Part shown: in pieces, positions 34,124-55,290 of the stretch
How positions within the stretch are numbered: the first letter of the stretch is position 1
Layout: each line of letters starts with the position of its first letter
NCBI GenBank assembly: GCA_047495785.1
Contig: JBLDXI010000042.1
Coordinates: forward strand, 2,170,001-2,234,000
Direction: 5' to 3'
From: Lepidodermella squamata
Lineage: Eukaryota > Animalia > Gastrotricha
Length of the DNA: 64,000 nt
Notes under the pieces: model-generated
Database searches by the model: none
Told to the model about the DNA's origin: nothing
The model's input: the letters and a program-made list of their open reading frames with translations, nothing else
Made by a program: the position numbers and the translations under genes

Positions 34124-34445
34124 TAGCCGCTGAAAGCAATCGAGAGGATGGATGCATAAAATGCGGCAGGGCGTCGCTTTCTTAGCCGCAATCGAACGGC
34201 GCGAGTTCTTTAACCACGCCGGCGCGTCGTTCGGGACGACAGGAATGCGGTTCGTAACCAATGTCGGAATGACACGCATCGCTCAGAAAAAATTAACACG
34301 TCTAAAAATTGCAAATAAAGACAGTTATTAACAGTCCGTGAGATTTTGTTGCCATTAAATACGATCAATAAAAAAACGAGGGCGATAGAAATGGAAAAGG
34401 GCGAGACGCGAAAAATTAAGGAGGAACGAGAATTAATAGAAAAAA

Positions 34446-34778
34446 TCACAGCCGGGCGCGTTGCAGCTCAGCGAAGACATCCTCAGCATCGATCGGCGCA
34501 AAGCCATTGAGCAGCGAAGCGACGAATTCGTCCAACGATTCGAAGGGATCATACTCTTCACCCAATACCAGAAACTGTAAGTCGGCGTAGCCAAAGAAAT
34601 CGTCATCGTCGTTCGTGGTGCCGCCGTCGATCATCGTGCCGCCGTCGTCGCCGGCCGCATCGATGAGCCAGTCGTGAAGCCGCGGCTGCGGGACAACGGG
34701 AACATACTCTTCATCGAATACCTGACGCCATAAGTCGGCGTAGTCATCGTAATTCAGATCGTCAGCCAGGTCGGACAT
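34446..34778 (-). CDS. Small acidic paralog of the heptad protein
   Basis: Shares HDWLIDAAGDDG, the LxxLVxGEE pattern and D(I/A)ExVFA with ORF 32828-34123. Confidence 0.7.
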   Translation of the reverse strand: MSDLADDLNYDDYADLWRQVFDEEYVPVVPQPRLHDWLIDAAGDDGGTMIDGGTTNDDDDFFGYADLQFLVLGEEYDPFESLDEFVASLLNGFAPIDAEDVFAELQRARL

Positions 34779-35107
34779 ATGAGGTAGAAATCACGTGAAA
34801 GTCTAATAAAAGCAAAAGGCAATCCGTTGGAAATTGCGAAGCCAGTTTTAAGATCAAATAACGACGAGTCGAAAGATACGAAAAAACGAGGACGATAGTC
34901 ATCAGGGTTGCTGAGATAATAGGCTTCGAAGTTTACGAACGAAAATATAAATTTTGAAAATTTCTTGAAAAATGAGCCGCGGCCGACACGGTTGAATAAA
35001 AAAGCGCGAGTTGCGAGCATTGTTGCCCAATGGCGCAGAAAAATCAACACGTGAAAGTATATAATAATTTCGAATAAAATTCAGAAATTCGCGAAATTTG
35101 CGCAGGG

Positions 35108-35504
35108 TATTTATACCCTCCGCAGGCAATCAATCAACAGGTAGAGTTGTAAATGTCAAATTTTCCCTGTCAAAAATCTGTCAAAAATTCGAACATAATT
35201 CAAGAAATCTTGAAGGAAACGTCAAAAATTTGAAGTTTCAATGGTTACAAGGCAATTAAAAAGTCAGATTAGGCTTAAATTTCTTGAGCAATTTGTCGAA
35301 AATCTGTCAAAATGTCGAATTTCAAGTTGTAAAACTGCCAAGACTTCAAAATGTCAAGTTATAAAACTGCCAAGACGTCAAATTTCACGAAGTTAAACTG
35401 CCAAGATGTCAAATTTGTCGAATTTAAAATGCCAAAATGCCAAGAATGTTACAAATTTAGATTTATTGCTGAAATATGATTGATTGGGTCTAAGGGTATA
35501 TAAG
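35108..35504. promoter_or_regulatory. Divergent TATA promoters flanking a TGTCAA/TGCCAA-rich array
   Basis: TATAAATA on the minus strand (35108-35115) and TATATAAG on the plus strand (35497-35504), each preceded by GGG. Repeated TGTCAAA and AAACTGCCAAGA lie between them. Confidence 0.6.
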
Positions 35505-35597
35505 CAGGGCGCGGCGCACACTTTCAGCACTCGTACAGAATTCCTTACAGATTTCACGCCACTATTCCACCTTAAAGTTCCCATATACTTTCTACCC

Positions 35598-36884
35598 ATG
35601 AATCAGTTTGGCAATTTTGGGTTGGGAAACATCCCGCCTAATAACTTGCAATTCCCGGCTAATAACACGCAGTTCCTGGCTAATAACATGCTATCATCTC
35701 AACAAGTGGACACGGCTCGACAGGTAAAAAATTTGCGAATGAGACAACTCCGAAGTTGAATAATGCATTTAAATGAGATGCATTATTCAACTTAAAATGA
35801 GAAGAATACTGCTAAAGCGAAAATTTTATTATGAACGCTCGTTACCGTTCATCGACCGCTACATGTGTAAAAATACTTTAATCTCATGCTGCGTCGATCA
35901 ACGGTACGGGCGATCGTATAATAAAATACCGCCACTCGTTATATCTCGCACCTAGCGCGCGCGCGTGTAATAAAGCTAATCCGGTATTAACGCTGTTCGA
36001 TACCGTTGCGGTCCTGATCAGCGCTCATAACGGGTTCAACAAAGCAGAAAGGCGCAAATAAAATCATCAACGATGCGCGCCGGCACATAATAACGCAGCT
36101 CGTTACAGTGTAACAGTGTACAAACGGGCGAATCGCTGATGATGACAAGTGCGAAATTATATAACGGCGCGCAAAAATAGCCGCAATAAATTTGACATAA
36201 AAAGTGCGCGCGCGCGCGCGCGATAAAAATAAGCGCAGCGCTGCCGAGCATCATCGGCATCATCGAATAACGCGCGCGCAATACCTCGCACGTTTGCGAA
36301 AATATAAAAAAAAATTCAAACTATGCAGTAATATTAATAAGGAGTGATGTAAATTTCAGGAAACTATTGAATGGGCGCCGTTCGACTCGTCGTTGTCTAC
36401 TAATGCTCGAGCTATGGATAAATTGGCCAGCTTCAAGTTTACGAATAATTACAAGGCTATTCGCTATGTGTGCACTGACAACAAATACGTGTTTTTTCTG
36501 GGGAAAATAAATTCGCCGGATCCGCACAGCCCGATGGTGCAGCCGGGTAAAGGTCTGTGGATGACAGAACTCGAGGTACGACAAATGCTGGCCGGCATCA
36601 AGGGCAATGCAAACTGGCTTCGAACTCTAAACTCAAGTCTTCAAGCTGCCGGAGCCAATCGAGAAAATCTCGGGGTTCAATCAGTCGAATCGTCCAATAA
36701 TCACATCATCAACAACCTCCGCTGGTCTTTTTACGCGCCAAAGAATATCTTGTTCATTGATTTGCGCAGGTATACGCCGCAGCCAGATAATAAGTATAGG
36801 GCGATGAAAGATGGCATCTCAATTCCGCAGTCAATTTTTTCGCAATTAGAGTCGATTTTATGCCAAGTTCTTGAAGGCATCTGA
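35598..36884 (+). CDS. PC4/Sub1-like ssDNA-binding protein (probably tandem PC4 fold)
   Basis: Exon 35598-35723 splices in frame to 36360. FIDLRRY...AMKDGISIPQSIFSQL resembles the PC4 IDIREY...KGISL pattern; a weaker first copy is PGKGLWMT. Confidence 0.7.
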
Positions 36885-37302
36885 GGATCTTAGTCATCCT
36901 TAATTGAGCTGCTGATTAATTCTAGCAATCATCAGCCGACTGCGAATAAAAATCGCAGGATTATATATCGCACTAATATTACTAAATTTAATCGAACCTA
37001 TTATCATGTTACTTCAATCAATTGAAACTATTATCTGGTTTATAGCGAATTTTAACTATTTATCCTCATTTACGAGACCACAGTTCGAGTCGTACGATGG
37101 GTCGAACTAGGATCTTGATATTATCGCTCTCATTTATCTATTAACCAAGCATTACCCCAATAAATCCAAAAAATCCCAAAATTAACGCAGTGTCTAAAAT
37201 TTTAGGAAATTAAATATTATTAGAAATTGAGCTACATCGCCCGACACAGGTAAGCGAATAAATTTTTCAACTAATAGATGCTCTAGAATTAAAGTAATAG
37301 CC

Positions 37303-40300
37303 ATGGATGAAGAGTTCAAACTACTGCGCTATGAAAAAGTTAGCGAACGCTTTGGCTTATCGACATATGAATTTTTAATCCAGGCCGGTGGTGGTGAATC
37401 TTCCGCCGAAACGGATTCTCTCCAGCAATATGAAAAAATTCAAAACTATTTTGAAAAAATAGTTGATCGGCTTCGATCAAAGTTTGACCCGGATAGCATG
37501 TGCCGGATATCTATTCACAACTCGGAGCTTTCGTATCCGATATCACTGGGCTATTATAGGCTAGCAATTTTATCAGGGGCTATCATAACCAATCATGTGG
37601 AACGAATCGCTCAGTCGAAGCGAGGATTAATTTTTTCATCCACTCCTTTCCGAGTAGAAGCAAACATGGTTTTTCTCGATAAAATGAGGGATGATGAATC
37701 CAAGTATTTAGGATCTGGCCCTGTTAGGCATCGAAAGAAACTCGAGACAAGCGCCTTGAAATGGCTATCAAATCTTAGTTCTTACATCCCTGTTGACAAC
37801 GCAGATAATCTGTGTTTATTTTACGCTGTGGTTTTGGGCATGAGCCACAGCAATTACATAGCATATGTAGCCGATAAAAACAAGAATTTACTTCGATATT
37901 TGGAATCTCCAGAATTGGAGCAAAAAGGACTAGAATATATGCATCTGAAAAATGACAAGGCTAGACTGCGAAAGATGGCTCGGGATCTGTGCCGAAAATC
38001 CGGCTACGACCCCGAATCTAATCGATCATACGGTGTAGCTGACCTTCCTAAAATAATGCAATTTTTTCCGGATCATCAAGTAATAGTTTATTCTCTATCA
38101 GACAATCGGGTCGTATACATGTGGCCTGATAGCAGTGCTTTTTCTGACAAAGATCCGATTCGAGTATACTTGATATGGATCCATCCCAAGTTGATGGCTC
38201 CAATGTACAGCAGGGTTGGGCATTACGGCGCTCTCAAGAATTTGAGTCAAGTAAGCCATGCGAAAACGTACTGTAAACTGTGCTTTGTACCTATATCAAG
38301 ATCAAATCATAATTGCCTATATCGATGTTACGCATGCCATCAGCGATTAAAACCAGCTTTAAGTTCGAATAATGGGATAGTGGATACTCCGAGATGCCTT
38401 AATAGGTGTTCCGATGAGTCAACAATTAGTTGTCAGAACTGCAATCGATTTTTTTTCGGAATTAATTGTCACAATTACCACATCAAAGCTAAGATATGTG
38501 ACAAATTTGTTCGATGCAAATCTTGCGGGCAAATTAAAACTCGAATTAGGATGGCTGAGCACAAATGCTCTGGTCGCAAGTGTGTGGTTTGCAAATCAAA
38601 GCTGGAACCTGGCCATCAATGCTATTGGACAAGGCCAAAGCTTAAGGAATCAGCTGCTCCGAATCGCGTATTATACTTTGACATCGAATGTATGCTCTTG
38701 GATTGTGGGGAATTTCATGCAAGCACCGTTATCGGCGAATTCGCATGCGATGCGTGTTCAGAGCGTGAAATACGCGAATATCCCGCGGACGGAGGTTCAA
38801 TCTGCGAAAATGAGTGCTCTCAGCTATTTTTCTATCACGAATCTGATGCATTCGCGAAATTCATGCGATATATATGCTGCGATCGGTATAAGGATCTGAC
38901 GTGCATTTCTCATTACGGCGGTAAGTGATTAGGCTCAAAAAACGTGAAAAATCTAGGCTGTAATTATTTTAGGCAAATTTGATACGATTTTTGTTCTGCG
39001 CTACGTTCAAGAACAGAATATTAAATTTGAGACTATAGAGAGGGCGGGAAGAATATTGGAGCTAAAAATAGATCGTGGACCCCGGTAAGAGTGCAAATTT
39101 GTAAAAAAAAATAGATTTCAAAAATTGGGAAAAAATAGATTTATTGATAGCTACAACTATTTTTTGACAAAATTGTCCTCTCTCCCGGCCGCTTTCGGCA
39201 TTGACGGCTTGGAAAAACTTAGCTATGCTCATAAACTGCATACCCGCGAAAATTTGTTCAAAGTTTTTCCCGAATGGCCTGGGCTTGAAAAGTACGATAT
39301 CAGCGGCATGTCTGAGAAAGAAATCGCCAGCTTGGAAGATTTCATCAGGCTGAAGAGGCAAAATCGCGAAAGTTACGATTTTAAATCGGAAACTTACCGG
39401 TATTGCCGACAAGATACCGTCATTCTACGAATAGCAACTGGCCGATTCAAGAAAATGATACAGGAATTATCAAAGTGTGATTACGCACCGAATGGTATCA
39501 ATTGCTTCAACTACCTAACACTGTCGTCCATCTCCCATATTATTTATCGAGTAGGTTAAGAAAAAAATGGAGTAATCTACCTTAAAAACATTTCTGGTCA
39601 CCCTAGATTAAGTACATGCTGCCAAATTCAATTCGAATATTCAATCCTCAAGGATTGGTGCTCAGAGACGTCGCAAGTCAAGAAGCTCTGCAATGGCTAT
39701 ATTATTACTCTAAAATTCATAATGTGGAGATTGAATCAGCTTTGAATGGCAGTGAAATTAGGCTGAAAATGTCTGATAAATCTGAGCTCAAAGCTGACGG
39801 GGTAATTCGCAACAAGTCAACAGGGATGGTTGAGCGGGTACTCGAATACTACGGTGAGCTCTGAACATCATTTTCTCAGATAGATTTACGCTTTCGGTTC
39901 TAGGCTGCACCGTTCACGGGCATCCTCGTTGCGTCCCTGAAAATAGGTACAACTTTTTGCTGCGAAAAACGTATGGGGAGCTTGCTTATCAAACGGCTAA
40001 ACGCGAAGAAAAGCTTCGCCAGCATAATTATCAAATCACCTCGATTTACTCTTGCGAGTTTAAGCAAATTCTCGCGAATGACCCAGAACTTGCTTCGACA
40101 TTGCGAGCTGCGGTTTCAATAGTACCGCCGATTAAACCACGGTCAGCGCTATTGGTAAGACTGCTGAAATTGCGATAAATATATCAATAGAAAATAATTT
40201 TAGGGTGGACGAACGGAGGTATTCAGGTGTTATTTTGCTAGAGATTCAGCGACGAGTCTTCAATATGTGGATATAAATTCCATGTATCCATACGTTCTGT

Positions 40301-41785
40301 GTAGCAAACAGTTTCCGTGCAATAACATCTCGGCACAAGTATTAAGGTGGCGATTGAACGACGAAAAACTGAGAGCAAAGTTTTTCGACGAAAATGACCC
40401 AGCATTTGGCCTAGTTTCAGCGAAGTGTTGTCCGAATCCCAGCCTAATCGTGCCATGTTTGCCTTATAAGTCCCCCGATGACGATCGCCTGGTTTTTATC
40501 AGTTGCAGAACATGCTATCTGGAGAAAAACGTGACGACTAGATGCAATCATGACATGGATCAGCGCGCAATTTCCGGAGTTTGGACCAGCGAGGAGCTTC
40601 GCATGGCTGTTGTACAATTCGGTTATAACTTGGTCGAGGTATACGAAATATGGCACTTTCCAGACCGTAGCAACTTGCAATTCAGAGAATTCATTCTCTC
40701 GCTTCAAAAATTGAAGCTTGAAAACACTGTTCTTGCTCCAACAGTTGACGTCGAGCAATACGTCACCGAATGTCGGGAAAGGTACGGAATCGAGCTCGAC
40801 CGGCAAACCATGCTGTCGCCGAATGCTTCGATGAAACAGATTTCCAAGATCCTTCAAAATAGGTAGGTCGATTAAACAATCTTGAAATTAACCCTAATTT
40901 ATCTCTCAGCTTCTACGGTCGCTTTTGCCTACGAGCAAATAATTCCGTGGTGAAATATTTGGACTCGCCAGAACAGTTGATCGAGCTTTTTGAAGCTCCA
41001 AGCAAGGTTATTCACACAATTCAGCCAGTAGGACCAGATGACGAGCACCAAAAAGTCCGCGTTTCATATTCAGACGCTCCAGAATATGAACAGCCATGCG
41101 CTACCAACTCTGAAATTACAGCCTCCTTTATAACTTCTTACGCAAGAATGAAACTTTACGAGGAGGTTCGCAATAATTGGACTAAACGAATTTCAAGCTA
41201 ATTACCTTTGATTTCAGATGGCCAAGCTGGGTTCCAGACTTGTATACTGCGACAGTAAGCAAATTCGCTACCTAAATTTCGTAGAATTTTGATAATCTTG
41301 TATTACGCAGCCGATTCGTTGATTTACACGCACCAAGAGGGTGAATACAAAATTCCAGAGAGTCCATTTCTGGGAGACTTCAAGTCTGAATTGAGCGAGG
41401 GAGAATTCATTGAGTCTTGGGTAGCGATTTCGCCAAAATCCTATTCATTTGTCTCCAACTTGAGGTATAGAATTAATTTTTAGACTTGTTTTTTTTTTAA
41501 TTAATTTCTTTTAGAACTGAACTCAAGTTTAAAGGAATAACCCAAAACTTGGCGGGGAAACGGTTGACTCACGAATCTCTAATTAAGCTGCTAACCGACT
41601 ACCTTAACAATTTTGCTGCTGAAAGTGCGATAACTGTCGATCAGACCGTATTTCGTAGGCGTCACGTTCCAGCATCCGTAACTCTTGAAAATATTGAGAA
41701 AACAGTATCCCCTCACCTTAATGACAAACGAATATTTGATCCTTTGTCATTCACCTCTATCCCTTACGGATATCTTCCTCATTAA
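37303..41785 (+). CDS. pPolB: Protein-primed family B DNA polymerase (TP/vOTU-like N-terminus, Cys-rich region, exonuclease, VSR-like insert); 9 introns
   Basis: After splicing: YFDIE, HYGGKFD, FIDSY, YCRQD, EYYGCTVHG, GGRTE, DINSMYP, KILQNSFYG, YCDTDS, KFKGI. Introns 38921-38972, 39085-39138, 39551-39606, 39854-39903, 40155-40203, 40863-40909, 41166-41217, 41255-41310, 41465-41514. Confidence 0.95.
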
Positions 41786-41829
41786 AATAATAATACGATT
41801 TGATCGCTTTCTCTCGTAGATTTTAGAAA

Positions 41830-42261
41830 ATGACAAAAAGTATCGCATCGGAGCGTTTAGCGCCTGAGAGCAAGGCCTTGTACGAATTTATCGAAGACGA
41901 GGTTACCTGCAGCATCTGCTTGGGAATAATGACTTCTCCCGTCTACCTAACAAGTTGTCATCACGTCTATTGCGAATCCTGCCTATGCCGATGGGGCGAG
42001 AGATGCCGCGGTTCTGATGCTCGATCTCTTATATTCAAAAGAGCGACTTGTCCCAAATGTCGAGAGTTTTACTCGCTGTTGGACATCAATCCTGGACCTG
42101 GTGTCGTCGAGCGGCTAGTTTCGCGCATGCTTTTCAGTTGCATTTATGAAAAGTATGGTTGCTCAGTGAAGCGTGACCATTGGGGCATCAGGGCTCATCA
42201 AAGGATCTGCAAGGAGAAAGGAGCTGCTAGTAAGCGCAAAGTTGCCCAACAGCTTGCATGA
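41830..42261 (+). CDS. C3HC4 RING finger protein with TRAF/SIAH-type zinc finger (putative E3 ligase)
   Basis: CSIC...CHHVYCESC...CPKC followed by CIYEKYGC...HQRIC. Confidence 0.9.
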   Translation: MTKSIASERLAPESKALYEFIEDEVTCSICLGIMTSPVYLTSCHHVYCESCLCRWGERCRGSDARSLIFKRATCPKCREFYSLLDINPGPGVVERLVSRMLFSCIYEKYGCSVKRDHWGIRAHQRICKEKGAASKRKVAQQLA

Positions 42262-42421
42262 AAAAAATGCTTGATAATTTAGCGTCAATAATCCAAAGTT
42301 GCTCAACAGTTTGCATGTAAATACATCTCGCATTAACTTCAATAATCCATTAAATTCCAAATATAATATATATTTTTTTAATAATTTTAGAAAATTAAAA
42401 ATTAAAAATTTCCGCCGAATC

Positions 42422-42798
42422 ATGGTGATCGCCAAGTCCTATGCTGCGTATATCAGAACCGACAAAGATCTCCTATTTTATACGCCCTTCAACGAACAAA
42501 GCACGACTGATGATATGGCCAAGAGAATGCGAGAATACTGGCCAGCGAACTGGGGCGAAAAGCCTGGGGACATCAAGTTTGAATGCAAAGGCCGATCAAT
42601 ACGGAAGACAGTTCGCCTGTCAAGTAAGCTTTCCGCCATGCCTGACTAAACTTGAAAGTTTACTCGCTAGGTTTGAGCCGCTTGGTTGGTGGTCGCATGT
42701 ACGTATTCTATGGGAAGGCGAAACTCGGGACAGCGACACCTGGAAAGGTGGACTGCCCCGCCTGCGAAAAAGGAGAGTGCATCATGTCAGAATTCTAG
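42422..42798 (+). CDS. UBL3/MUB-like ubiquitin-fold protein 1
   Basis: STTDDMAKRMREYWPANWGE; intron 42624-42670; ends CPACEKGECIMSEF. Confidence 0.75.
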
Positions 42799-42894
42799 GT
42801 GGTGAACGCAGTGACTTATCAATTATTCCCCTCTGTTTATTCACATTAAACAATGTATATAAAATTTTGATTAATCTTAGACGTTACTTTAATC

Positions 42895-43270
42895 ATGGGA
42901 TTCCGAGAACCCTCTTCATTCGAGTCGAGCCCTTCACCAGATGATGATCTCGAGATTGGCTATGCCGCAACGCTAATATGGCGGAATAAGGACCAAATAG
43001 TCATCCATTGCTGCAAGTCGTTTACTGTCGACGACATTATCTGGCAATTGTATCACGAGTGGCCCGAAAGTTGGGGCCTTAAACCGGCGTTGAGTAGCAT
43101 TTACCTGTATCACTGGGGAGTTCCGTTGAAGCGAGAAGCCCGCCCCATAAGTAAGTTGTGCCAAGATGACCTCAAGCCCGTTTCAATATATCTTTTCAGA
43201 ATATTGCGAGTACTATGGCCAAGGCGGTATAGAACTGAAGGTTAAAATCAGTGATGATGACGAGGAGTGA
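42895..43270 (+). CDS. UBL3/MUB-like ubiquitin-fold protein 2
   Basis: TVDDIIWQLYHEWPESWG...IYLYHWG; intron 43151-43199; ends IELKVKISDDDEE. Confidence 0.75.
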
Positions 43271-43660
43271 TTGATCGCATCTCTAGTAAATCGAGTCTCT
43301 AAGAAGGTTTTTTTTTCTTCTAAAAATTAGAGAAATTTAAAACAATATTCAGCGAACATGAGGCTGCGAATTCGAATTGCAGATGGCCTCGAGCCAACTT
43401 TTTGTATCAGAGACATGGGACATTACAAAGCAAGTAATTTTGCGCTAGTTGAAATTTGCATCTCTTAACTGCTTCTTGCAATAGGAGTTAACAATTCGAA
43501 ACTTTCCAGGCTATGCTCGCGTTTCCGTTGGCAACTCGGCGATAGTTAAGATGTATCGCCAATCTGAAACCGTCACCGTTATTTGCATCTATAAGAAGCA
43601 ATAAATCGCCTTAATTGATTTGTATTGTGGACATTTTAGATAAATTTGAGAATATATTTG

Positions 43661-44056
43661 ATGGAAACTCCCCGCCCTTCATCTTCGAGCAGCATCGAGT
43701 CGCACCACTCGGCTGACTCCATGCGGCCTTGTGCTCCACGCGAACGCACTGTTGTTCTACGATGGATAGATGGTAGTGAAATCGTCATGCCATTTAGCAA
43801 ATATTGCACGGTAGCCGATCTCATCTTCATGCTGTATGAAAAATGGCCGGCAGAATGGGGGGAAAGACCGCAGTACAGGAGACTTTTGCTGTGCGATAGT
43901 TACTGCCGAATTCCTAAATTCGCTCGAATGATGGGTAAGTTAATGTTTATTAAATTCCACCGTTAAATGACTGAATTTTATTAACCTTAACTTACAGAGC
44001 TCGACAGACGATCTGGAAGGACGTTCTTGTTATTCGTCAAGCTGACAGCATACTGA
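43661..44056 (+). CDS. UBL3/MUB-like ubiquitin-fold protein 3
   Basis: VVLRWIDGSEIVMPF...TVADLIFMLYEKWPAEWGE; intron 43935-43997; ends TFLLFVKLTAY. Confidence 0.75.
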
Positions 44057-44126
44057 CACGGATTAACTAACTAATAACTGTTTGCATGCATCAGCTAAAT
44101 TTAGGCAGCATTATTACATAGCGAAT

Positions 44127-44438
44127 ATGGATAGTTTGGATTCCCTCAGCTCATCTGACGATTCATGCGTAGCAGACGATTTCAGCGTCCTTTTAACATG
44201 GATGAATGGTGACGAACTCATAATGAGATGCCCTCGAACGGATTCTGTTGATGATTTGCTGTCAAGACTCTATGATGACTGGCCAGTGTATGGATGGGGA
44301 AGACGACCCGCGGATCCTGCCGTGTTAGCGCTGAGCAACGCCAGACAATGCTTACCAAGATCCCAACTGCTTATGAGGGATCACACTGGAGATGCTACGG
44401 GGCATGTCATCTTGAAGTTTTATGTACATTTGAAGTAA
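44127..44438 (+). CDS. UBL3/MUB-like ubiquitin-fold protein 4 (intronless)
   Basis: DSVDDLLSRLYDDWPVYGWG...DPAVLAL. Confidence 0.7.
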   Translation: MDSLDSLSSSDDSCVADDFSVLLTWMNGDELIMRCPRTDSVDDLLSRLYDDWPVYGWGRRPADPAVLALSNARQCLPRSQLLMRDHTGDATGHVILKFYVHLK

Positions 44439-44612
44439 TTCTCGCAATAGCTTGTATTATCGCCTCAGTATACCTTGTATATCAATCTATAACCTCATTA
44501 TAAATAGGAATGTAAACTGTTTTTTAGAGTGATTAGCTTTGTATGTAAAATTGATCCCAACGGCAAATTTAGGCGAGTAATTTAAGGCTTTATATAGCAT
44601 CAAAAGAGCAAA

Positions 44613-44837
44613 ATGGATTGGGGTAGCTCATCATCTGATGATTCAAGCATAGCCGACGATTTCTGCGTTCTTTTAATCTGGGAGAATGGCAACACACTAA
44701 CAACGAGGTGCCCTCGAACGGATTCTGTCGATGATTTACTGTCAAGACTGTACTCTCGGGGTGCGATCTTGGAGCTGCCGGGTTCTGGGGGACCGACTTT
44801 GCTTGCTGTATTTATTAAAAGGATTAGAACTAATTAA
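44613..44837 (+). CDS. Internally deleted duplicate of UBL-like protein 4
   Basis: Shares RCPRTDSVDDLLSRLY and flanking DNA with copy 4; the WPxxW segment is missing. Confidence 0.6.
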   Translation: MDWGSSSSDDSSIADDFCVLLIWENGNTLTTRCPRTDSVDDLLSRLYSRGAILELPGSGGPTLLAVFIKRIRTN

Positions 44838-45065
44838 CCTCATTAAATACGAATGTAAATTTTGTGATTTTTTAGAATGATTAACATGTCATGTAAAATT
44901 GATTTCAACTCCGCCATGCATCCGAATTTTGCGTGGGCGCTAGTTCGAGGTTCGAAGGTGGGACGCGATTTCAAGCCTCGGGTGACACTACATTGCCCTA
45001 TATATTTTCAGCCATTTGACCTTCTTCGAGCCACTAGCAGCAGCAGGTCCAGTGTGTCCCAGTCG

Positions 45066-45816
45066 ATGATGAAAGTGATGTGCATCTCTGACACTCATAA
45101 CGAAGACATCGTACCACTTGTTAGCAAGCTTCAGCGATCATCGCAAGCCGACATTTTGATCCATGCTGGAGATGCGACCACGTTCGGTAGTCTTGACGAA
45201 GTGAGAAATTTTGATTCTCAGCTTGCGAAATTGAGACCGCTGTTTCACCAAGTAATTGTAATCGCTGGAAACCACGATCGCTCCTTACAATACGACCGCA
45301 ATTTACTGCGCGATAATTGCACCTACTTGCAGGATAGCTCTGTAAAAGTGAATGGCTTTCTTTTCTACGGCGCTCCATGGTAATTTATAAGGCAATAATC
45401 ATCGGCTTTGACGTGTGTGCAAAACAGGACACCACTCAGCGAGAGCTGCCATTCTGCTTTTACGCTCAACAGAGGCAACGAACTCGGTGAAAAGTGGGCA
45501 TTGATACCCGCTGAGACGGACGTTTTGGTAACACATTGTCCACCGTTAGGTGCTCTGGATCAAACGTCAACAGGTGATCACCTGGGATGTCTCTCACTAG
45601 CTTATCATGTCTTGGGTCGGATTCAACCACAACTCCATGTTTTCGGCCATTGCCACTACAGTAAGATATATCAAAACAACACACGAATCATATTACATAT
45701 TTATTTCAGGTAACGGAGAAATGCAAAGTGAATATACGCACTTTGTGAATGCGAGCATTTGCGATGATAACAACAGGCTTCAATTCATGCCGAGGCTGGT
45801 CGATCTCTACCATTAG
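45066..45816 (+). CDS. MPPED1/2 (239FB)-like metallophosphoesterase; start may lie upstream (44877)
   Basis: CISDTH, HAGD, IAGNHD, VLVTHCPP, HVFGHCH, FVNASIC; introns 45380-45427 and 45661-45709. Confidence 0.9.
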
Positions 45817-46781
45817 TCGACCTTTGGAACCCACGATGACCAATTCCCGCCAGTCTGCTTGGCAATGTGCTCTTTATTCTGCTCACCCGCCGCCGCCTGC
45901 TCTTCCTTACTACGTAGCGAACGTGGTGATGCCGCTACCCGCGGATTAGTCGCGTTCAACGCTCCTGCTCTGACCATGTTTCGAATACGGTCTTGCATTC
46001 TCGGACTCAGATTAGCGTTCTTGTTAGTTGCCTTGTCGAGAAATTCTACCAACTCCCATGAATCTATCAATTGTCCTTCCGAGTTGACGTATTCGATTTT
46101 ATTTGCAGGCGAAATATAGACTGATTTTGGCTTTGAACTCCCGCGCAAGTGATTCAAAATTCGAGCTGCAGCAGATTGTTGTGTTTTACTCGGGAAATTT
46201 TCGAGGATCCTGCCGTCCGTCAAGTTTACAAGACTGATTTTATCTTTCGGCTTCGCCTTCTGATCAACTATGTCCTCATTGTCGTTTTGTTGCTCGTCTT
46301 GGCTAAACTGCTCTATTTTTGGCGAAGTAGTATTACCAATCACCCTGCGCTTGGGAGTGCCGTTGGGCGAAGTCCTGTATTTCTTCGCTAATTTTCGCAA
46401 GATTCCGGGCGTTGGTGCAGGGCTTTCGTCCTCCTGCTCTTCCGCCTCTTCATCTGCCTCCTGCTGCTGCTGCTCCTTTTCCTCGGCTTTACCTTCAAGG
46501 ATTTTCAATTCCTTTACGACTCGTTGAAACTCTCGAAACGCTGAGTTGAATTTGTACAGCTTTTCGCGGGCATCTTCGTCGCTGCCTTCAGATAACGATG
46601 TCAGCAGCTGAGTCGCGTTACGTTTAAGATGACCTTTTTGCGCAGGTTGAGAGGCTTCCTTTATCAACCGCTTGCTCTCTGCCTCGAGTGCTGATGGGGC
46701 TTCCGTTTTATTAGCTTCACTAGAAGATCCAAGCACAAGAGCGTAACGCTTCGCATGCAGACCAATGTCTGTCGATTTCAT
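45813..46781 (-). CDS. Polinton protein of unknown function, possibly virion-associated
   Basis: 322-aa ORF at the end of the structural gene block; C-terminal QTGGNW. Confidence 0.7.
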   Translation of the reverse strand: MKSTDIGLHAKRYALVLGSSSEANKTEAPSALEAESKRLIKEASQPAQKGHLKRNATQLLTSLSEGSDEDAREKLYKFNSAFREFQRVVKELKILEGKAEEKEQQQQEADEEAEEQEDESPAPTPGILRKLAKKYRTSPNGTPKRRVIGNTTSPKIEQFSQDEQQNDNEDIVDQKAKPKDKISLVNLTDGRILENFPSKTQQSAAARILNHLRGSSKPKSVYISPANKIEYVNSEGQLIDSWELVEFLDKATNKNANLSPRMQDRIRNMVRAGALNATNPRVAASPRSLRSKEEQAAAGEQNKEHIAKQTGGNWSSWVPKVD

Positions 46782-47197
46782 GGTTTTCGGGTTGCCTTAA
46801 CAATAGCTTCAACGATTGTAGGGAGTATGCCTATAACAATCCTGCAGATAAACTTCATAGTCGAATTTGAAAAACGCATACCTGCTGCAGCAGATAATAG
46901 CGGAACAACGAACGCAGCGCCGCCTTTTTGAACTATGAATGTTCGGTTACCACTGATTGTTCTGTCACTACTACTCAGTTTTTTGATAGATTTCCTAAAT
47001 TTACGCAGCTTTGGTGCCAAATTATCCGGAATCTGTAGATTTTTGTTGATAAGATTCAGGCAGATTTCACTGATAATTCTGATCACGGAATCAGGAGCTA
47101 TCGATAATAGCTGTCGTCTTCTGTCGGCTGTTTTTGCTTTATGAATTTCCCTTAAAAAGCCCAGTACTCGATCAGATTTATTCAATGGCTTACTCAT
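46778..47197 (-). CDS. Basic core protein with adenovirus pX-like QKGG-hydrophobic tail
   Basis: QKGGAAFVVPLLSAAAG|ILPTIVEAI; probable in-frame intron 46831-46881. Confidence 0.7.
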   Translation of the reverse strand: MSKPLNKSDRVLGFLREIHKAKTADRRRQLLSIAPDSVIRIISEICLNLINKNLQIPDNLAPKLRKFRKSIKKLSSSDRTISGNRTFIVQKGGAAFVVPLLSAAAGMRFSNSTMKFICRIVIGILPTIVEAIVKATRKP

Positions 47198-47262
47198 GCT
47201 TAATAGACATGCTACCAATAATTTAAGAAAAAAGTCCGTTTCATCTCATTTAAATATACATT

Positions 47263-47999
47263 TTATTTAGGAACATAAATGACACCAGGGTTACTTCCTA
47301 CCCCGGTTCTGTAACGCATATATTCAGGACAGTTAGGACTCAGATCTATTAACAAATAATTGTGACTGCCTTTGCTAGTTTCCATTTCAAAGCTCTCAAC
47401 TAAAAAGCGCCATCGCAACGGTTCCAGCTGCAGAGCAAGGTAGCGAAATGCTGTGAGGTCCGCTCGATGCCGAAAAATGAACAAGTATTTCGCATTTAGG
47501 GTCATTTCTTTGGAAACTTTTCCCTTACTGAATATGGCTTGTTGGGTGAAAAACACTGACAAGTTCATGTGATGAGAGTATCGATAGAATAACTGTAAAA
47601 TCTTGGGATCGTTTCGACCCGTATCATATAGATCATCTATGAGAAGTAAGGTGTGTTTGTCTTCACTATTCTCGAATTCTTCAAAATTGAGTTGTTCCAA
47701 TCCTTTCCGAAAGTCGATACTTACTCCACGAATCCTCTCAACTTCGTCTTTGATTTGCTGATGCATCTTAGTTTCGACGCCGTAAAACCATACGATTCTT
47801 TGCGGCGGCGGAGAGATGGACTCGAGATCGCACAGAATGCTCCGAATAAGCCATGTTTTACCTGAAAAGTACCTTCTAAATACTAACTATTCAACTTGCT
47901 ATATATCATACCTGCTCCGCTGGGACCTATTACAAGAGAGCAGAATGGAGCTTGCAGACTCAGCGAAAAGTCAGTCTCTGATGGCAAATTGCTTGACAT
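47263..47999 (-). CDS. A32/FtsK-like DNA packaging ATPase
   Basis: Walker A GPSGAGKT is restored by intron 47862-47911; Walker B LLLIDD; SHHMNLSVFFTQQ. Confidence 0.93.
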
Positions 48000-48535
48000 G
48001 ATTGGCGACCGTCACACGTGGATAATTTGTGCGCGGCCTTGCTTAGCTTAAATAGCTTTTTCACTTGGTCTACTACAAACTTGTCAGTCTCTGGCGGCAT
48101 CGGCAGCATCCGCGTAATGCTATTAATTGTTGCGCCCCGCGATAGCCAATGCAAACTCCAATATGCATAGTACCCACAAACAGCTGATGTATCCCCCTGA
48201 TATTTTCTCCCGTTAAAAGCATAGTAATCTGCCCCATTTATTTCCTTTAAAAACTGCTCAATATCTTGATTGTAGAAAAAACCCCGTTGGCCGTAGCTGT
48301 CAAATAGTGTTGCGGGTTCATTATTTTGTGGAACGTATATAGATAGCCAGTGGCGCCCAGGCTGGCCTGCAGCGTCCGTATTTACAATCAAGGCCATCGG
48401 CCGATCACTCAGTCTTCGATATTCAGCTAGGAAATCCCACGGAATTGTCTTTTTAACTGCAAGTTTACTTATTATCTTGTCACAGGCTAATAGGCAGTCA
48501 AGTTGGAGCGTGTTAAGTTGCTCTGCGGCATCCAT
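47960..48535 (-). CDS. Adenain-like cysteine protease
   Basis: GRHW, FDSYG, QGDTSAVCGYY (His-Asp-Cys triad). Confidence 0.93.
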   Translation of the reverse strand: MDAAEQLNTLQLDCLLACDKIISKLAVKKTIPWDFLAEYRRLSDRPMALIVNTDAAGQPGRHWLSIYVPQNNEPATLFDSYGQRGFFYNQDIEQFLKEINGADYYAFNGRKYQGDTSAVCGYYAYWSLHWLSRGATINSITRMLPMPPETDKFVVDQVKKLFKLSKAAHKLSTCDGRQSCQAICHQRLTFR

Positions 48536-48538
48536 TTG

Positions 48539-49828
48539 TTACGTAAAGTCGACCAAGACGTTCCTTGCAAAGTTTAGCTCAATGACTTGGTCAGTTTCAA
48601 AGTAGCAAAGCAATATAAGATTGTCCTCTAATGCCGATTTAAATAATAGGTCTATATTAAGGACCCCAGTTTTCACCAAACTATATGCACTTCGACTCGA
48701 ATCGGGTGAAAGGTCAAACCCGATGAACGAAAACCCATCTTTCGAATACTCGGATAGCGTGATACCATTGGTCTTGGCTGAATATGGGAACAGCGTCTCT
48801 CTTAGCGCGTTTAACGCTCGAGCCGATTTATTACTACCATCTCCGATATCAAGCGGACTGTTGGGTACATGCTCGCTGTCTATCATTACTGAGACGCGCT
48901 GCAACCCGGCGTTTTTGAAATCATATGGGCTGGTGCTAAAATCACCCTTAAAGTCCTTATCGCTCACAAAACACATCACTAATCGTCTTGGAATTTTCCC
49001 GATAAGAACATGTCCCAAATTATAATTTAGCGATCCCTTTTGCAAGTTCAATATCTTGATAAAAGATCTATTAACGCCGTATTTAGCAGTAGTTTTCGTT
49101 AGGGTTCGGTTTAACGCCAAAGTGAATTGCGGGGACACTCGGACACGACGTAATTTCAGCTTGGCATCGGTCACAGTCAACGTGAATTTCTCTTCATCTG
49201 TACTTGCCTTCATTAGCACAAATGCATCGGAAGCCCTAACAAACGTTAGCTTGAAAGGCGTTGCCGGTATCAGGAATTTCGGTTGGGAAAATAGTTCTAA
49301 ATGCGGCCGACCTATTAGCACCATTTCACCTTCCTTTGCCCACGCCAACCGCTTAACGTGACCTTTGCCTGCGACGTCGCTCACCTTGCTCGCTTCGTCG
49401 GCAAAGTAGCCTTGAAGTGCTAGGTAGCTATCCTTAACAGCATGGTCATAGCTTAGAAGTGTTGAAATGTAAGCTTTGTAGTTGTAAGTTGGAGCTGGTT
49501 CGCTTATTTGTGTGTTATTGATACTCATGTCTATCTGACTGAACATGCTATGTAATAGCAGGTTGACTGGTGCGCACGTGATCGCCGTTTTTGCCTTGGC
49601 CGGGTCCGTGTTTACGACTTTACAGGTAATTTCAACATACGATCGGCTCAGGTCTGTCCAGTCGTTGCTCGGTGGAACGTCAAAATCAATCCTTGACTGA
49701 TTAGCTATAGCTGAAACTGGTCCATATTCTGTAATGTAGTTACTCTCAATCTCTACTTGCGTAGGGTTCAGCGAAAAAACGTTGAGCTCAGCGCGAATAG
49801 CGTTTTCAGAAGATGGGTGTACGTACAT
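48539..49828 (-). CDS. Major capsid protein (double jelly-roll)
   Basis: HPSS..ELNVF..PTQ N-terminus, PVNLLLHSMFSQ, YNYKAYI, IPRRLV, FDLSPD; 429 aa. Confidence 0.92.
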   Translation of the reverse strand: MYVHPSSENAIRAELNVFSLNPTQVEIESNYITEYGPVSAIANQSRIDFDVPPSNDWTDLSRSYVEITCKVVNTDPAKAKTAITCAPVNLLLHSMFSQIDMSINNTQISEPAPTYNYKAYISTLLSYDHAVKDSYLALQGYFADEASKVSDVAGKGHVKRLAWAKEGEMVLIGRPHLELFSQPKFLIPATPFKLTFVRASDAFVLMKASTDEEKFTLTVTDAKLKLRRVRVSPQFTLALNRTLTKTTAKYGVNRSFIKILNLQKGSLNYNLGHVLIGKIPRRLVMCFVSDKDFKGDFSTSPYDFKNAGLQRVSVMIDSEHVPNSPLDIGDGSNKSARALNALRETLFPYSAKTNGITLSEYSKDGFSFIGFDLSPDSSRSAYSLVKTGVLNIDLLFKSALEDNLILLCYFETDQVIELNFARNVLVDFT

Positions 49829-49875
49829 GATTACTATTTACTATACATCTCATTCGACGCCTTTAAATACAGTTT

Positions 49876-50347
49876 TCAGAAGTAGACACGTTTCCCAGCC
49901 TTCTTTTTACCGACTGCTTTGCTTTTACGCTTAGCAATGACGCGGCGGCCCCGGCGGCGCCTGCGTCTTCCAGTCCCAATTTGCGATCCTACATTTGCAA
50001 TGACATCCTTGGCTACTCCCTTTAATCCTTCCACAGCTCTCCGCTTCAGTATCGTTTTCGGACTGGCGTCCTTATTTTCCAACAAATCGCTTGCGATATT
50101 AGCCGTCGTGTGACTCAGATTTCGGAATATTGGTCCCAGCAATGGAATAATATGATTACGAAAAAATCCGGCGGCTACACTTCCGAATCCGTTTCCTGTC
50201 TATAATAAACTATGCCTAATCAATCTAATATTTATCACTTGATGTTACCTGATAAGTAGGGAATACGAGTGATTGACCACGAAACGGTTCTATCCCGTAC
50301 CCACTTTGTTGCAACAAAAACGATTCATAAGCATCTGCTGAATGCAT
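49876..50347 (-). CDS. Core/membrane-active precursor with QxGxG sites and an Arg/Lys-rich tail
   Basis: QSGYG, Q|TGNG (intron 50200-50248), amphipathic FGSVAAGFFRNHIIPLL, QIGTGRRRRRR. Confidence 0.75.
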
Positions 50348-50353
50348 GCTTCT

Positions 50354-52043
50354 TTATTTAGCTATAGGTCTAATTTGCACAAGTATTACTGCTTTACCGC
50401 TAACAAATTTCACTGGCAAGCCAGAGTCTTTAAATATCTGAATCTCTATTACGGATAACACGCGGCGTTTAATCGGAACAAATATTGGCTTTTCAAACAT
50501 TATGGAGAAAAATCCGCCTCTTTCATTAGTTTTTTCTGTTGGTATCACTCGCAGAAGTGGGGTGCGCGTGTTTCCCACGTACACGTCATCAATTACATCA
50601 GCGTACAAAAACAAGAAGGGCATTCCATAGTCCAACTGAGGCGCGAATTTCGCTGTCATTTTCTCTTTGACATCATGATAAGTGTAGGTGTATTCTACTG
50701 TTGATATGACTTGCTGCTCTTTCGAGTCTGATTGCGGTTTAGCTGAAGCACTGATGCCGTTGTTGTTCGCAGGTACGTTCTCGTCAGGGACTTCGTCCGA
50801 GGCCGCGTTCTGAGCTTCGCTGCTGGAGCTCGTAGTGCTGGGCGCTGGTACGTTCTCATCAGGCTCGCTATTGTTCCCGGGGACGTCGTTCGAGGCTGCG
50901 TTCTGAGCTTCTGCGGGGTTGTTGGGTGTGACTTCGCCCTGAGCTTCGTTGTTGGAGATTGCGGGAGGATCGGTGTTGGAAGCAGGTACGTTCTCGTCAG
51001 GGACGTTGTCCGAGGCCGCGTTCTGAGCATCGCTGCTGGAGCTTGCGGGAGGCTCTTTCTTGGCTTCGACAGCGTTCTGAGCATCGCTGCTGGAGCTTGC
51101 GGGAGTCTCGCTGTTGTTCGCGGCTGCACTATTGCTCGGCTCTTCGGTTTCTTCCGCTACATCTTCATGCTGATCGATATCCACGTTGTCCTCGGCATTT
51201 TCCGCCTCGGATCCCCCCCATTCATCGTCTCCGAATTGAACCGGTTCATTGCGTTTCGCTATCTTACGAGGTGGTTGCTCTTCTGTTGGAGCCGATCGCC
51301 GGATCCTACTAGTCTTTGCTACCTCCTCCTGCATGAATAATTGACCAGTGACTTTAAGCTTGTTGTCATTTATTGATGACAATGCCATGCGATATGGTAT
51401 TTTCTGGCGGTTTCCTCGAATAACATATCCCAGCATGTGCATGAACGCTTCGGCTTTCTCCCTATGTTTCCGCTGGTTTTTCATGTTCTTTGCGCCGTAC
51501 TCGTTGAATGCTATGAAGGCTTCTGGGAATCCAAGGACTTGAGCTAATTCTTTCGGTATGAATATGCCCCAACGTCCTTGTTCCACCTTTACGGATACCC
51601 GATTTGCTATTTTCGTATAGTCAAATGATATAGCTTTGGTTATCGGCTTGATTTCTGTCACCATGTGCTCCAACAACTCCTCGATGCTAGAGTAGTAGAC
51701 GCCACCAACTTGGCACTCGTGCATTTGCAACGCGTCAAATGGATCCGCCAAGTTTACTTCAGTATTGTGCACCCAGTCACTGTCAAAGATATAATATTTT
51801 GTTGGTTCCAGTGATTCCCACGCTGCCGGTCCGTTAAATTCAACCAGCCCCATTTCCCATTGACCTACGTACGTACGCGTTCTCTTAACAGTTTGGTTTA
51901 TTTCTTTTTGAATACTTACCTACTGTACCTAGATCAATCTCATTAGCTAATTTCACGCGATACGAAGACGGCGTGTTATCAGGAAATAGATCATTCGATG
52001 CGTTCGACGGCAAATAGAGCAGAAATTCTTGCTGTGCGCTCAT
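50354..52043 (-). CDS. Minor capsid (penton) with a long acidic low-complexity insertion
   Basis: LYLPSNAS..FPDNT..GQWEMGLVE (intron 51865-51919); C-terminal YADVI..VGNTRTPLLRVI..PVKFVSG. Confidence 0.88.
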
Positions 52044-52306
52044 TTCGTATTATTAGCAATTGTCAAGGCTATGCAATTGATCAGTCGATCGTTCCAAGAT
52101 CGTGCGACTTCCACAGTGCAGTACGTGATAATTATTGCGAACAAGGATAATACGCCGATGCTCTTCTTCTTACTCTTAAGTGTCGCTGCTAATCTGCTAC
52201 TGACAGAGCTGCTATGTGGACTACTTGTCCTTTTAAATAAGCTTGAGTCTACTTGATCTTCCCCTGCAGATGGCATGCGACATGGCAGTGATGTTGTAGC
52301 ACGCAT
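52040..52306 (-). CDS. Small single-pass membrane protein
   Basis: KSKKK followed by SIGVLSLFAIIITYCTVEV. Packed between neighbouring genes, with an ATGA overlap. Confidence 0.6.
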   Translation of the reverse strand: MRATTSLPCRMPSAGEDQVDSSLFKRTSSPHSSSVSSRLAATLKSKKKSIGVLSLFAIIITYCTVEVARSWNDRLINCIALTIANNTK

Positions 52307-52384
52307 TTATCGGCGACGACGTCTGTGGTATCGTTTGCGTGCTGTGTGTCTTCGCTTTCGGATTGCTCGTCTAGGTCCTGGCAT
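52307..52384 (-). CDS. 25-aa protamine-like Arg-rich peptide
   Basis: MPGPRRAIRKRRHTARKRYHRRRRR; fills the gap between the integrase stop and the next ATG. Confidence 0.7.
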   Translation of the reverse strand: MPGPRRAIRKRRHTARKRYHRRRRR

Positions 52385-52385
52385 T

Positions 52386-53627
52386 TTATTTCCGCTTCCG
52401 CTTCGATTTTTGCGCCTTTAAATATTCATTTTCTACGGCTTTGATTTCTCCGATCGGTTCCCACGAGCTCTGCGATTTAGGAAACCCTACCCAACTGACC
52501 AGCACTCTAGTTGTTCCGTCCTTGAACTTTCTCTTTTCCTTACCAACTTCGGCTATCAGGTACTCTTCAGGAAGCTTGACCTTTTGAAGCTCGTAACTAT
52601 AAAAAACTCCGGCCAGCGGCTCTGTGTAGTCTCCCTTCTCCTTATTCCACTCATTGAGCTTATAAGTGTAGGGACCGAATTTGTCTGGCTTAATTATCCT
52701 CGAAATTTTAAAGTATTCGTCCGTGTATACAAAGTGGCGGGCTCGATCGAATACCCCCCTTTCAGCTGATATCCGAACTACATCTCCGACCTGGAATTTC
52801 GCCTTTGAATTTCTCTCTTTTTTATGTTCATCAACAGGACCGTATATATTTTCATAAGCTTGAAATTGCTTCAGGCTGTCCTCGTATATGTCCAGATTGA
52901 GGTCTTTGTCGCTTTCAATTTTCCTACCGGTTTCTTTGTCATTATACAGCTCCGCCGGTGTAAATTTCGTTGAAGAGTGAATGCTCTGATTATAGACTCG
53001 GACAATATCCTGCAAGTCATCTACGTATCTTCTATCATTCCGTGCTATCGCTAGTTTCGCAAGTCTCATGCGAAGCAATTTGTTGAACGACTCAATCTGA
53101 GGAACCTTCTTCTCTGAATTAGTTGCAAAATAATGTATTGATTCTGATTTCAGATATTGCTCTACATGCTTGTTGAAAAATTCTGATCCTCTGTCAAATA
53201 CGACAGCTGACGGTTTTTGCTTGGCATCTCTCAAGACTAATTTCAGTGCTCTTAACGTTTCTAGACCAGTCTTATTGAGCATCGGCTGCACCCAGGCGAA
53301 TCGGCTATATGTATCCTTTGCTGTCAACAAGTATTGAACGTTATCGTTCTCGCCTTTGACGTTTTTCACATCCAGCAAGTCCATGGCGAACATACTTCTT
53401 CTACTGAAACAAGCTACCTTACGCATTAGCCGATTCCGCGTTCCAACTTGCTTGTACACGCTCCATGCTCGCTGGTTCCCGAGCCACTCTCGCACTTCCT
53501 TGAAAGAAATCCTACGATTTGGATACTTGGCCTTATACGAGTTGTACAGCGATGATATACTGCCGAGACTCCCCTTCTCCGCTGGTGTAAAATATATTTT
53601 CCTGAGACCTTCATCCGTAGCCGACAT
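52386..53627 (-). CDS. Retroviral-like (rve) integrase with C-terminal chromodomain
   Basis: DDE in FAMDL / VFDRGSEF / IESFN; VSWVGFPKSQSSWEP. Confidence 0.95.
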   Translation of the reverse strand: MSATDEGLRKIYFTPAEKGSLGSISSLYNSYKAKYPNRRISFKEVREWLGNQRAWSVYKQVGTRNRLMRKVACFSRRSMFAMDLLDVKNVKGENDNVQYLLTAKDTYSRFAWVQPMLNKTGLETLRALKLVLRDAKQKPSAVVFDRGSEFFNKHVEQYLKSESIHYFATNSEKKVPQIESFNKLLRMRLAKLAIARNDRRYVDDLQDIVRVYNQSIHSSTKFTPAELYNDKETGRKIESDKDLNLDIYEDSLKQFQAYENIYGPVDEHKKERNSKAKFQVGDVVRISAERGVFDRARHFVYTDEYFKISRIIKPDKFGPYTYKLNEWNKEKGDYTEPLAGVFYSYELQKVKLPEEYLIAEVGKEKRKFKDGTTRVLVSWVGFPKSQSSWEPIGEIKAVENEYLKAQKSKRKRK

Positions 53628-53671
53628 TCTCGATCTATATTATTACATTTCCAAGCGTTTTAAATATAGGA

Positions 53672-55236: not shown

Positions 55237-55290
55237 GTTGGTACAAATAAAAAATCGACCCTCCGCTGATCACCCGTGTTTTATTTTTCT

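Follow-up and report, generated by a model that had tools for sequence, protein, structure and literature searches.

Probable UBL3-derived ubiquitin-fold genes beside a RING gene in a Polinton of the gastrotrich Lepidodermella squamata

Viruses have captured ubiquitin-family genes and RING-type E3 ubiquitin ligases from their hosts, as exemplified by the baculovirus v-ubiquitin, the ubiquitin and ubiquitin-like (UBL) insertions of pestiviruses and the p28-type RING proteins of poxviruses. The present analysis concerns a Polinton (Maverick) of the gastrotrich Lepidodermella squamata, located in a stretch of 64,000 nucleotides (nt) that is referred to below as the window (positions 2,170,001 to 2,234,000 of contig JBLDXI010000042.1, assembly GCA_047495785.1). 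In this element, the gene for a RING protein is followed by four small genes and a shortened fifth which very probably descend from the animal gene UBL3. The locus resembles the viral systems in that host-derived ubiquitin-fold genes occur together with a RING ligase gene that may tune ubiquitination. Those systems, however, involve conjugatable ubiquitin or processing signals and usually a single, host-like gene, whereas the Polinton carries an array of diverged, non-conjugatable UBL3 derivatives.

The closest described proteins are those of the UBL3/MUB family (PF13881; PDB 1wgh, 2gow and 4x57), whose host member is conserved, ends in a CaaX box and is present as a single copy in human (PMC4996978; here and below, statements on cited papers refer to the part of each text that was available). 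MUB binds E2 ubiquitin-conjugating enzymes without blocking RING E3s; it contacts the E2 backside via Ile58, Gly61, Ile63, Val86, His88 and Val90, and blocks E1 with a so-called lap-bar loop built on an invariant proline (PMC4996978). The UBL3 modification involved in vesicle sorting requires C-terminal cysteines, mutants of which leave the membrane fraction and lose the modification (PMC6158211), while the role of UBL3 as a cofactor of the RING-CH ligase MARCH1 also requires C-terminal cysteine/prenylation (PMC9001657). The Polinton copies share with this family a predicted order beta1-beta2-alpha1 followed by W-P-x-x-W, a predicted phase-1 intron in the same codon, the top profile and model matches and, in copy 1, what appears to be a remnant of the Cys-rich tail. 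They differ from it in number (four plus one), in the absence of CaaX and of the lap-bar-loop proline, in an eroded E2-backside patch, and in possessing a shorter loop ending in WGx[KR]P and acidic, Ser-rich N-termini.

Intron-bearing, host-derived cargo with ubiquitin-like folds has also been described in nematode Mavericks, namely the WASP proteases and KRMA kinases (10.1101/2022.07.12.499685). In that cargo the ubiquitin-like fold forms an enzyme-fused N-terminal domain and was not assigned to UBL3 in the available text, whereas the present element holds stand-alone tandem paralogs located after the pPolB and RING genes.

The UBL3-like copies and their ancestry

The cluster comprises the following predicted genes, numbered in the order of their positions in the window:

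42422-42623/42671-42798, + strand: probable UBL3-derived copy 1, predicted 109 amino acids (aa); intron 42624-42670; Cys-rich tail, no CaaX; least diverged
42895-43150/43200-43270, + strand: probable UBL3-derived copy 2, predicted 108 aa; intron 43151-43199; Ser/acidic N-terminus, acidic C-terminus
43661-43934/43998-44054, + strand: probable UBL3-derived copy 3, predicted about 109 aa; intron 43935-43997; Ser-rich N-terminus
44127-44438, + strand: probable UBL3-derived copy 4, 103 aa, intronless; Ser/Asp-rich N-terminus
44613-44837, + strand: copy 5, tandem duplicate of copy 4, open frame of 74 aa without the WPxxWG segment or the part of the fold that comes after it

An earlier, sequence-only reading of the window had described a RING gene followed by four ubiquitin-fold open reading frames (ORFs) and a fifth, deleted duplicate inside the Polinton, and all of these ORFs were found where it had placed them. 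The motifs on which it relied were recovered as well, with T/S-x-x-D-hydrophobic present in all five copies and WPxx(x)WG in copies 1 to 4. Only one further match to WP.{2,3}WG occurs in the six frames of the window, while a DNA pattern for WPxxWGx[KR]P matched three times, corresponding to copies 1, 2 and 3, and not once in 100 shuffles. Copies 1 to 4 are 25-35% identical to each other, with open frames and intact splice sites. Copy 5 is indeed a deleted duplicate: it is 83% identical to copy 4 at the DNA level over 122 nt, its 3' flank was duplicated too, and the WPxxWG segment is missing. The predicted GT-AG introns of copies 1 to 3 (47, 49 and 63 nt) are all in phase 1 and fall in one alignment column. 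As had been noted, no copy ends in CaaX or GG, and copy 1 retains three C-terminal cysteines, the last of which is the sixth residue from the end. Assignment to the conjugatable UBLs (ubiquitin, SUMO, NEDD8) was rejected, as a C-terminal Gly-Gly occurs in no copy; the possibility that these are host genes beside the element was also rejected, since the cluster lies on one contig between pPolB and the core genes, inside the terminal inverted repeats (TIRs).

The descent of the copies from animal UBL3 is very probable and is indicated by several profile comparisons. In a Pfam scan, in which copies 1 to 3 were taken as unspliced ORFs, PF13881 (Rad60-SLD_2) was the only family common to copies 1, 3 and 4, with E-values of 0.084, 0.0026 and 0.24 and bit scores of 13.4, 18.3 and 12.0, respectively, all below the curated cut-off of 23. 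Copies 2 and 5 returned no match, and for copy 4 alone Sde2_N scored above PF13881. When a profile of the copies was compared with 177,635 PDB sequences, mouse and human UBL3 ranked first (E 0.046 and 0.064; 0.012 and 0.014 in a second run), and the best Atlas matches for copy 4 were UBL3/MUB-type clusters (0.86), which represent a lead only. The best profile matches are thus not to unrelated families, UBL3 being first in PDB, Pfam and Atlas, though each of these scores is weak. A homolog search with copy 4 yielded no match among two candidates. The sole match of a four-copy profile among 1.84 billion proteins (P0001) was rejected as a leucine-rich-repeat protein matched by repetition.

For direct comparison with host proteins, at least 116 metagenome loci with the animal UBL3 motif were collected, of which 114 proved to be UBL3 and 19 provided near-full proteins. 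Alignment of the copies with 14 of these 19 using hhalign returned a probability of 93% (E 2.7e-7) over 40 columns. A profile of all 19 placed copies 3, 2, 1 and 4 at ranks 1 to 4 among 1,531 six-frame segments of the window, and the score of each copy was reached by none of 500 shuffles per copy. The W-P-x-x-W motif after helix 1 is invariant in the 19 hosts and in copies 1 to 4, and is missing in copy 5, while the identity of copy 4 to host UBL3 is 16-26%. In a tree of 18 hosts and copies 1 to 4, from which one partial host sequence (L086) and copy 5 were left out and which has no outgroup, the copies form one side of a branch with a support of 95/96. The end branches of the copies amount to 4-9 changes per column. 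Phylogeny, proposed as a check by the sequence-only reading, thus groups the copies, but shows neither a single origin nor the donor, because the branches are very long and there is no outgroup.

A beta-grasp fold of the copies is considered likely. AlphaFold2 modelled copy 4 from its single sequence with a predicted local distance difference test (pLDDT) score of 50 and as beta-beta-alpha only. With this low-pLDDT model, Foldseek returned no match with E <1, and the best VIA match, not a meaningful one, was the CCT domain of SPAK (Z 5.2). When the alignment included three partial copies and 14 host rows, pLDDT was 66 and reached 79-87 over residues 11-50, although this model is biased and circular because of the host UBL3 rows in its alignment. 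Its top Foldseek matches, subject to the same bias, were 1wgh (UBL3) and 4x57 (plant MUB), with E 0.05-0.07; against 1wgh, VIA gave a Z of 5.3 and a root-mean-square deviation of 3.2 over 72 aligned positions, tied with other ubiquitin folds (Z 4.4-5.8).

The predicted introns and capture of the gene

The strongest support for UBL3 ancestry, which is independent of the motif evidence, is provided by the introns. In the codon that comes next after V-T-L-x, 58 of the 114 collected host loci (46 distinct exons) have a GT directly behind the first base, and their reading is interrupted there; the site is uninterrupted in 52 further loci, which represent transcripts or lineages without the intron, and four were unclassified. 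The next exon was found in six of the 58 loci, where it resumes in phase 1, the others being without a strict-pattern match within the fetched DNA. The junction codon of the predicted viral introns lies in the host intron column according to HMMER for copy 1 and to MAFFT for copies 1 to 3, and the register is ungapped from the beta-4 glycine in copies 1 and 2. The comparison with animal UBL3 loci that the sequence-only reading had called for therefore yielded the same codon and the same phase, 1, for the predicted introns of copies 1 to 3. In a domain of 85 codons, one such agreement in position and phase would arise by chance with a probability of about 1 in 255, and the match counts once, as the three copies are not independent. 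A host intron that interrupts W-P-x-x-W in many loci is absent from the copies, and is also absent from 17 of the 58 host loci.

Judging from the predicted gene structures, the capture of UBL3 likely took place at the level of genomic DNA, as the intron would be missing from a processed mRNA. A single capture may have been followed by tandem duplication, with loss of the intron in the line leading to copies 4 and 5. The profile ranks, together with the position and phase of the intron, support the capture and expansion of a host UBL3 that had been proposed earlier. A number of observations nevertheless weigh against this interpretation. No single sequence search reached the usual significance level, the significant local alignments span only the first half of the domain, and the second half of copy 4 has a pLDDT <55 even with host rows. 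In copy 3, a small insertion is required for the second-half register on which the placement of the intron depends, and the intron site is read through in the 52 of 114 host loci mentioned above. Moreover, the comparison draws on metagenome UBL3 loci rather than on the host's own gene.

A further, very unlikely reading is that the copies were captured and duplicated as hitch-hiking cargo, experience little or no selection and are at present decaying, copy 5 being the first in which this shows. Such decay would be consistent with the extreme divergence seen in the end branches of the tree, with the loss of functional motifs and the shortening of copy 5, and with the description of Maverick cargo regions as poorly conserved (10.1101/2022.07.12.499685). 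However, at such distances stop codons would be expected to have accumulated under neutral decay, whereas four frames at 25-35% identity have remained open and keep W-P-x-x-W-G, splice sites and acceptor-like signals. Furthermore, the block shared by copies 4 and 5 exhibits 0.59 synonymous (dS) and 0.15 non-synonymous (dN) changes per site, i.e., a dN/dS of 0.26, although the counts are small (13 versus 12 changes).

Lost UBL3 features and the putative function of the copies

The copies have lost most of the features by which UBL3 is known to act. A CaaX box ends 19 of 19 host proteins and none of the five copies, and copies 2 to 5 are without any C-terminal cysteine. The lap-bar-loop proline is present in 16 of 19 hosts and in none of the four intact copies, while the loop glycine is in register in copies 1 to 3. 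Positions equivalent to Ile58, Gly61, Ile63 and His88 of the E2-binding backside patch were mapped by motif spacing, which makes the result alignment-dependent; Ile is retained in 0/4, Gly in 2/4 and His in at most 1/4 of the copies. Among 49 columns conserved in at least 85% of hosts, copy 1 keeps 15, copies 2 to 4 keep ten each and copy 5 keeps eight, whereas the W, P and W residues are kept in all four intact copies. The copies would be UBL3 derivatives by ancestry and, by their defining features, probably not functional UBL3/MUB members.

These losses bear on two alternatives. According to the first, the copies would act in egress by routing proteins or particles of the element into small extracellular vesicles, as host UBL3 does with its cargo. 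The three C-terminal cysteines of copy 1 could be acylated or form disulfides, and the modification of UBL3 runs via C-terminal cysteines (PMC6158211). However, no copy has a CaaX box, copies 2 to 5 have no C-terminal cysteine, and Cys mutants of UBL3 lose both membrane association and modification (PMC6158211) as well as MARCH1 cofactor activity (PMC9001657). Because CaaX and the lap-bar-loop proline are absent and the E2-backside residues are mostly replaced, a role in egress, which the sequence-only reading had suggested along with immune evasion as the alternative, is considered highly improbable; for immune evasion there is only analogy. A second, quite unlikely alternative is that some copies bind the backside of UBE2D-type E2s without blocking their charging, thereby displacing host UBL3 and freeing or recruiting active E2 for the RING protein. 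A MUB with a replaced lap-bar-loop core still bound E2 and no longer inhibited it (PMC4996978), and the loop proline is absent from all four copies; on the other hand, the backside contacts themselves were mostly not kept in the alignment-dependent mapping given above.

The remaining genes of the run from the RING gene onwards are as follows:

41830..42261, + strand: C3HC4 RING protein of 143 aa whose C-terminal segment resembles a C/H zinc finger; E 3e-7 to 3e-6 for the RING families of Pfam
43358..43604 (end approximate), + strand: small spliced ORF of 46-56 aa, depending on the acceptor, between copies 2 and 3; hhalign probability to UBL3 0.05-0.06%
44877..45816, + strand: spliced metallophosphoesterase gene, final gene of the + strand run; Pfam Metallophos, E 4e-11

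The RING ORF matches Pfam zf-C3HC4 with an E-value of 4e-7 and 30.1 bits (cut-off 21), contains the C3HC4 ligand set from which ligase activity is predicted, and has TRIM RING domains as its best PDB matches (E 3e-8). The second finger is a putative feature read from the sequence, and no substrate-binding domain is evident in the predicted protein. The small ORF at 43358-43604 has its own acceptor-like site and poly(A)-like signal; no family was found for it, and its candidacy as a sixth UBL3 copy was rejected in view of an hhalign probability to UBL3 <0.1%. Thus, the five UBL genes which had been described as a run are all present, but they are not consecutive.

The + strand run (36414-45816) is operon-like in appearance, with short AT-rich spacers and an acceptor-like site just before the ATGs from the RING gene to the phosphoesterase gene. 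Its intergenic spacers measure 39-174 nt, and an acceptor-like pentamer lies within 50 nt upstream of 8/8 start codons from the RING gene to the phosphoesterase gene. As a background, the motif set, which was chosen post hoc, occurs at 51 of 363 other ATGs and in 70 of 203 AT-rich windows. The - strand virion genes that were checked do not display the acceptor-like pattern, and some of them abut or overlap. The predicted pattern fits either of two known mechanisms of gene expression, namely trans-splicing that resolves an operon, or alternative splicing in which the transcripts share a leader.

Our favoured reading, to which about an even chance is assigned, regards the copies as decoys or adaptors with a ubiquitin fold, soluble and diversified at the surface, that would operate in one ubiquitin circuit with the neighbouring RING E3; decoys or adaptors working with the RING ligase had also been suggested by the sequence-only reading and are plausible. 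In such a scheme, pPolB, the RING gene, copies 1 to 5 and the phosphoesterase gene would be co-expressed from a single operon-like unit, with trans-splicing, or else alternative splicing from a common leader, as the mechanism. The beta-grasp fold would be kept while the surfaces vary, giving each copy a binding partner of its own among ubiquitin-pathway or substrate proteins, and the copies would titrate host factors that bind ubiquitin or UBLs, or recruit targets to the RING protein. This reading is favoured because fold-core residues are kept while interaction surfaces differ between copies, because the membrane anchor is gone, because the RING protein is without an evident substrate-binding domain, and because cooperation with E2s and a RING-type ligase is already known for host UBL3. 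Several points count against it: with the E2-backside residues the copies lost the sole known UBL3 route to RING, the known functions of UBL3 need membrane anchoring that the copies lack, and the proximity of two genes in a compact viral genome is a poor indication of partnership, particularly with an unrelated ORF within the cluster. A complex prediction of the RING protein with copy 4, folded without alignments, had a score of 0.00 and was uninformative either way. A more elaborate version, in which the element would encode a modular E3 consisting of a RING-zinc-finger ligase and a panel of UBL3-derived adaptors for specificity, expanded in an accordion-like manner and expressed from a trans-spliced operon with the polymerase, is regarded as unlikely.

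It is unlikely that the UBL3-derived copies work apart from the RING protein and the ubiquitin cascade, as small beta-grasp binders directed against other host targets, for instance proteins of chromatin, silencing or signalling. Each copy has its own replacements of the E2-backside and lap-bar-loop residues, new Ser/Asp-rich N-termini are found in copies 2 to 5, where the Ser/acidic segments could serve as phosphorylation or docking sites, and the element also encodes a kinase and a phosphoesterase. Against such independent binders, no target is indicated, and the cluster comes immediately after the RING gene, apparently within a single transcription unit.

The Polinton, its setting and related elements

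The element that carries the cluster can be summarized as:

32438..55395, no strand assigned: Polinton/Maverick of ~23 kb with AGTAGT...ACTACT termini and pPolB, ATPase-like, protease-like, major and minor capsid and integrase genes

Its inverted-repeat arms (32429-32532 and 55301-55404) are 95% identical, with the AGTAGT and ACTACT ends at 32438 and 55395, and Pfam matches to DNA_pol_B_2 and rve were found. TIRs with AG...CT ends, pPolB, an rve integrase and a capsid gene are characteristic of Polintons/Mavericks and are all present. The + strand carries, in order, a PC4-like gene, spliced pPolB, the RING gene, the UBL3-like cluster and the metallophosphoesterase gene, while the ATPase-like, protease-like, capsid and integrase genes lie on the - strand; the ATPase, protease and minor capsid labels are putative readings of ORFs that have no Pfam match. 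The element is divergent, since its major capsid protein (MCP) is only 23-36% identical to its 35 database relatives. Insertion of Polintons/Mavericks produces a target-site duplication of 6 bp. Such a duplication was not found at the ends of this element, where the flanking 6 bases differ (32432-32437 versus 55396-55401), and the ends in the assembly may have been joined from different element copies. In one public run (X1), possibly the source of the window, positions 41000-46500 were recovered on a single contig without differences. In this run the element contigs have a depth of 184-218, as against 47 in the contig that adjoins the right end on the outside; this hints at multiple, nearly identical Polinton copies, but no copy number can be taken from it. 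The same run contains a second, diverged Polinton on a contig of 13,221 nt, which matches pPolB and the phosphoesterase gene and has core genes in order. Its interval between these two genes measures 3,811 letters versus 3,920 here, and the middle part is unlike the UBL3-like cluster at the 80% level.

Additional features of the element and its surroundings were observed. More host-like cargo is found in the interval between the integrase gene and the right TIR, where genes for a protein kinase (Pkinase, E 1e-20) and a TBP-like protein (E 5e-14) are located at about 53670-55236 (+ strand) of the window. The N-terminal ORF of pPolB (37303-38928, + strand) possesses Cys and His motifs resembling the OTU domain of animal Polintons, without a Pfam match; if this resemblance is true, the element would hold a possible deubiquitinase in addition to the RING ligase. 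Near the left TIR (32828-34790, - strand) lie ORFs that are rich in GC and very acidic; their tandem repeats include heptad-like S-P-T-Y motifs that are reminiscent of the tail of RNA polymerase II. Outside the element, five tandem host units occupy about 9000-31000 (+ strand), each consisting of a ~250-aa gene and a 350-500-aa gene; two of the genes were tested and had no Pfam match, and the longer one had no Atlas match. A trypsin gene in the flanking DNA had no match at E 1e-10 among 100 candidates. Judged by short introns and by its acceptor sequences, the host has a nematode-type appearance. A perfect inverted repeat of 459 nt, with arms 107 nt apart, lies at 59405-60429 and is probably a young miniature inverted-repeat transposable element.

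Among viral contigs, a search with the MCP alone revealed no relative, while an MCP alignment retrieved one distant Polinton (L117, 31% identity) with no UBL3-like segment among its 255. Scans of viral contigs with the viral and host UBL3 motifs returned one locus each (L118-L120), which were rejected as chance matches in phage contigs. In the available text of the adintovirus preprint, the only mentions of ubiquitin concern a UCH-like gene and the OTU domain of pPolB (10.1101/697771). A term search for 'ubiquitin' and 'RING' in the main text of a nematode Polinton survey, as available, had no match (PMC10748475), and the available part of a 2026 polisuvirus preprint contained nothing relevant (10.64898/2026.10.13.758929). 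A literature search on the UBL3/MUB intron gave no match. No report of UBL3 in a virus or Polinton was present among the literature matches listed, while supplementary annotation tables and Repbase could list such genes.

Host-derived cargo in Polintons and ubiquitin-family genes in viruses are already known, while for UBL3/MUB in either setting no report was found among the literature matches listed. The shared intron site constitutes unusually direct evidence of DNA-level capture, for a gene that has diverged beyond detection by ordinary searches. The array may also be viewed as a natural dissection of UBL3, in which the W-P-x-x-W core has survived the loss of both the anchor and the E2-inhibitory parts. 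If the copies do act in ubiquitination, they would demonstrate a manipulation of the host cell by Polintons, an aspect of these elements that is little understood.

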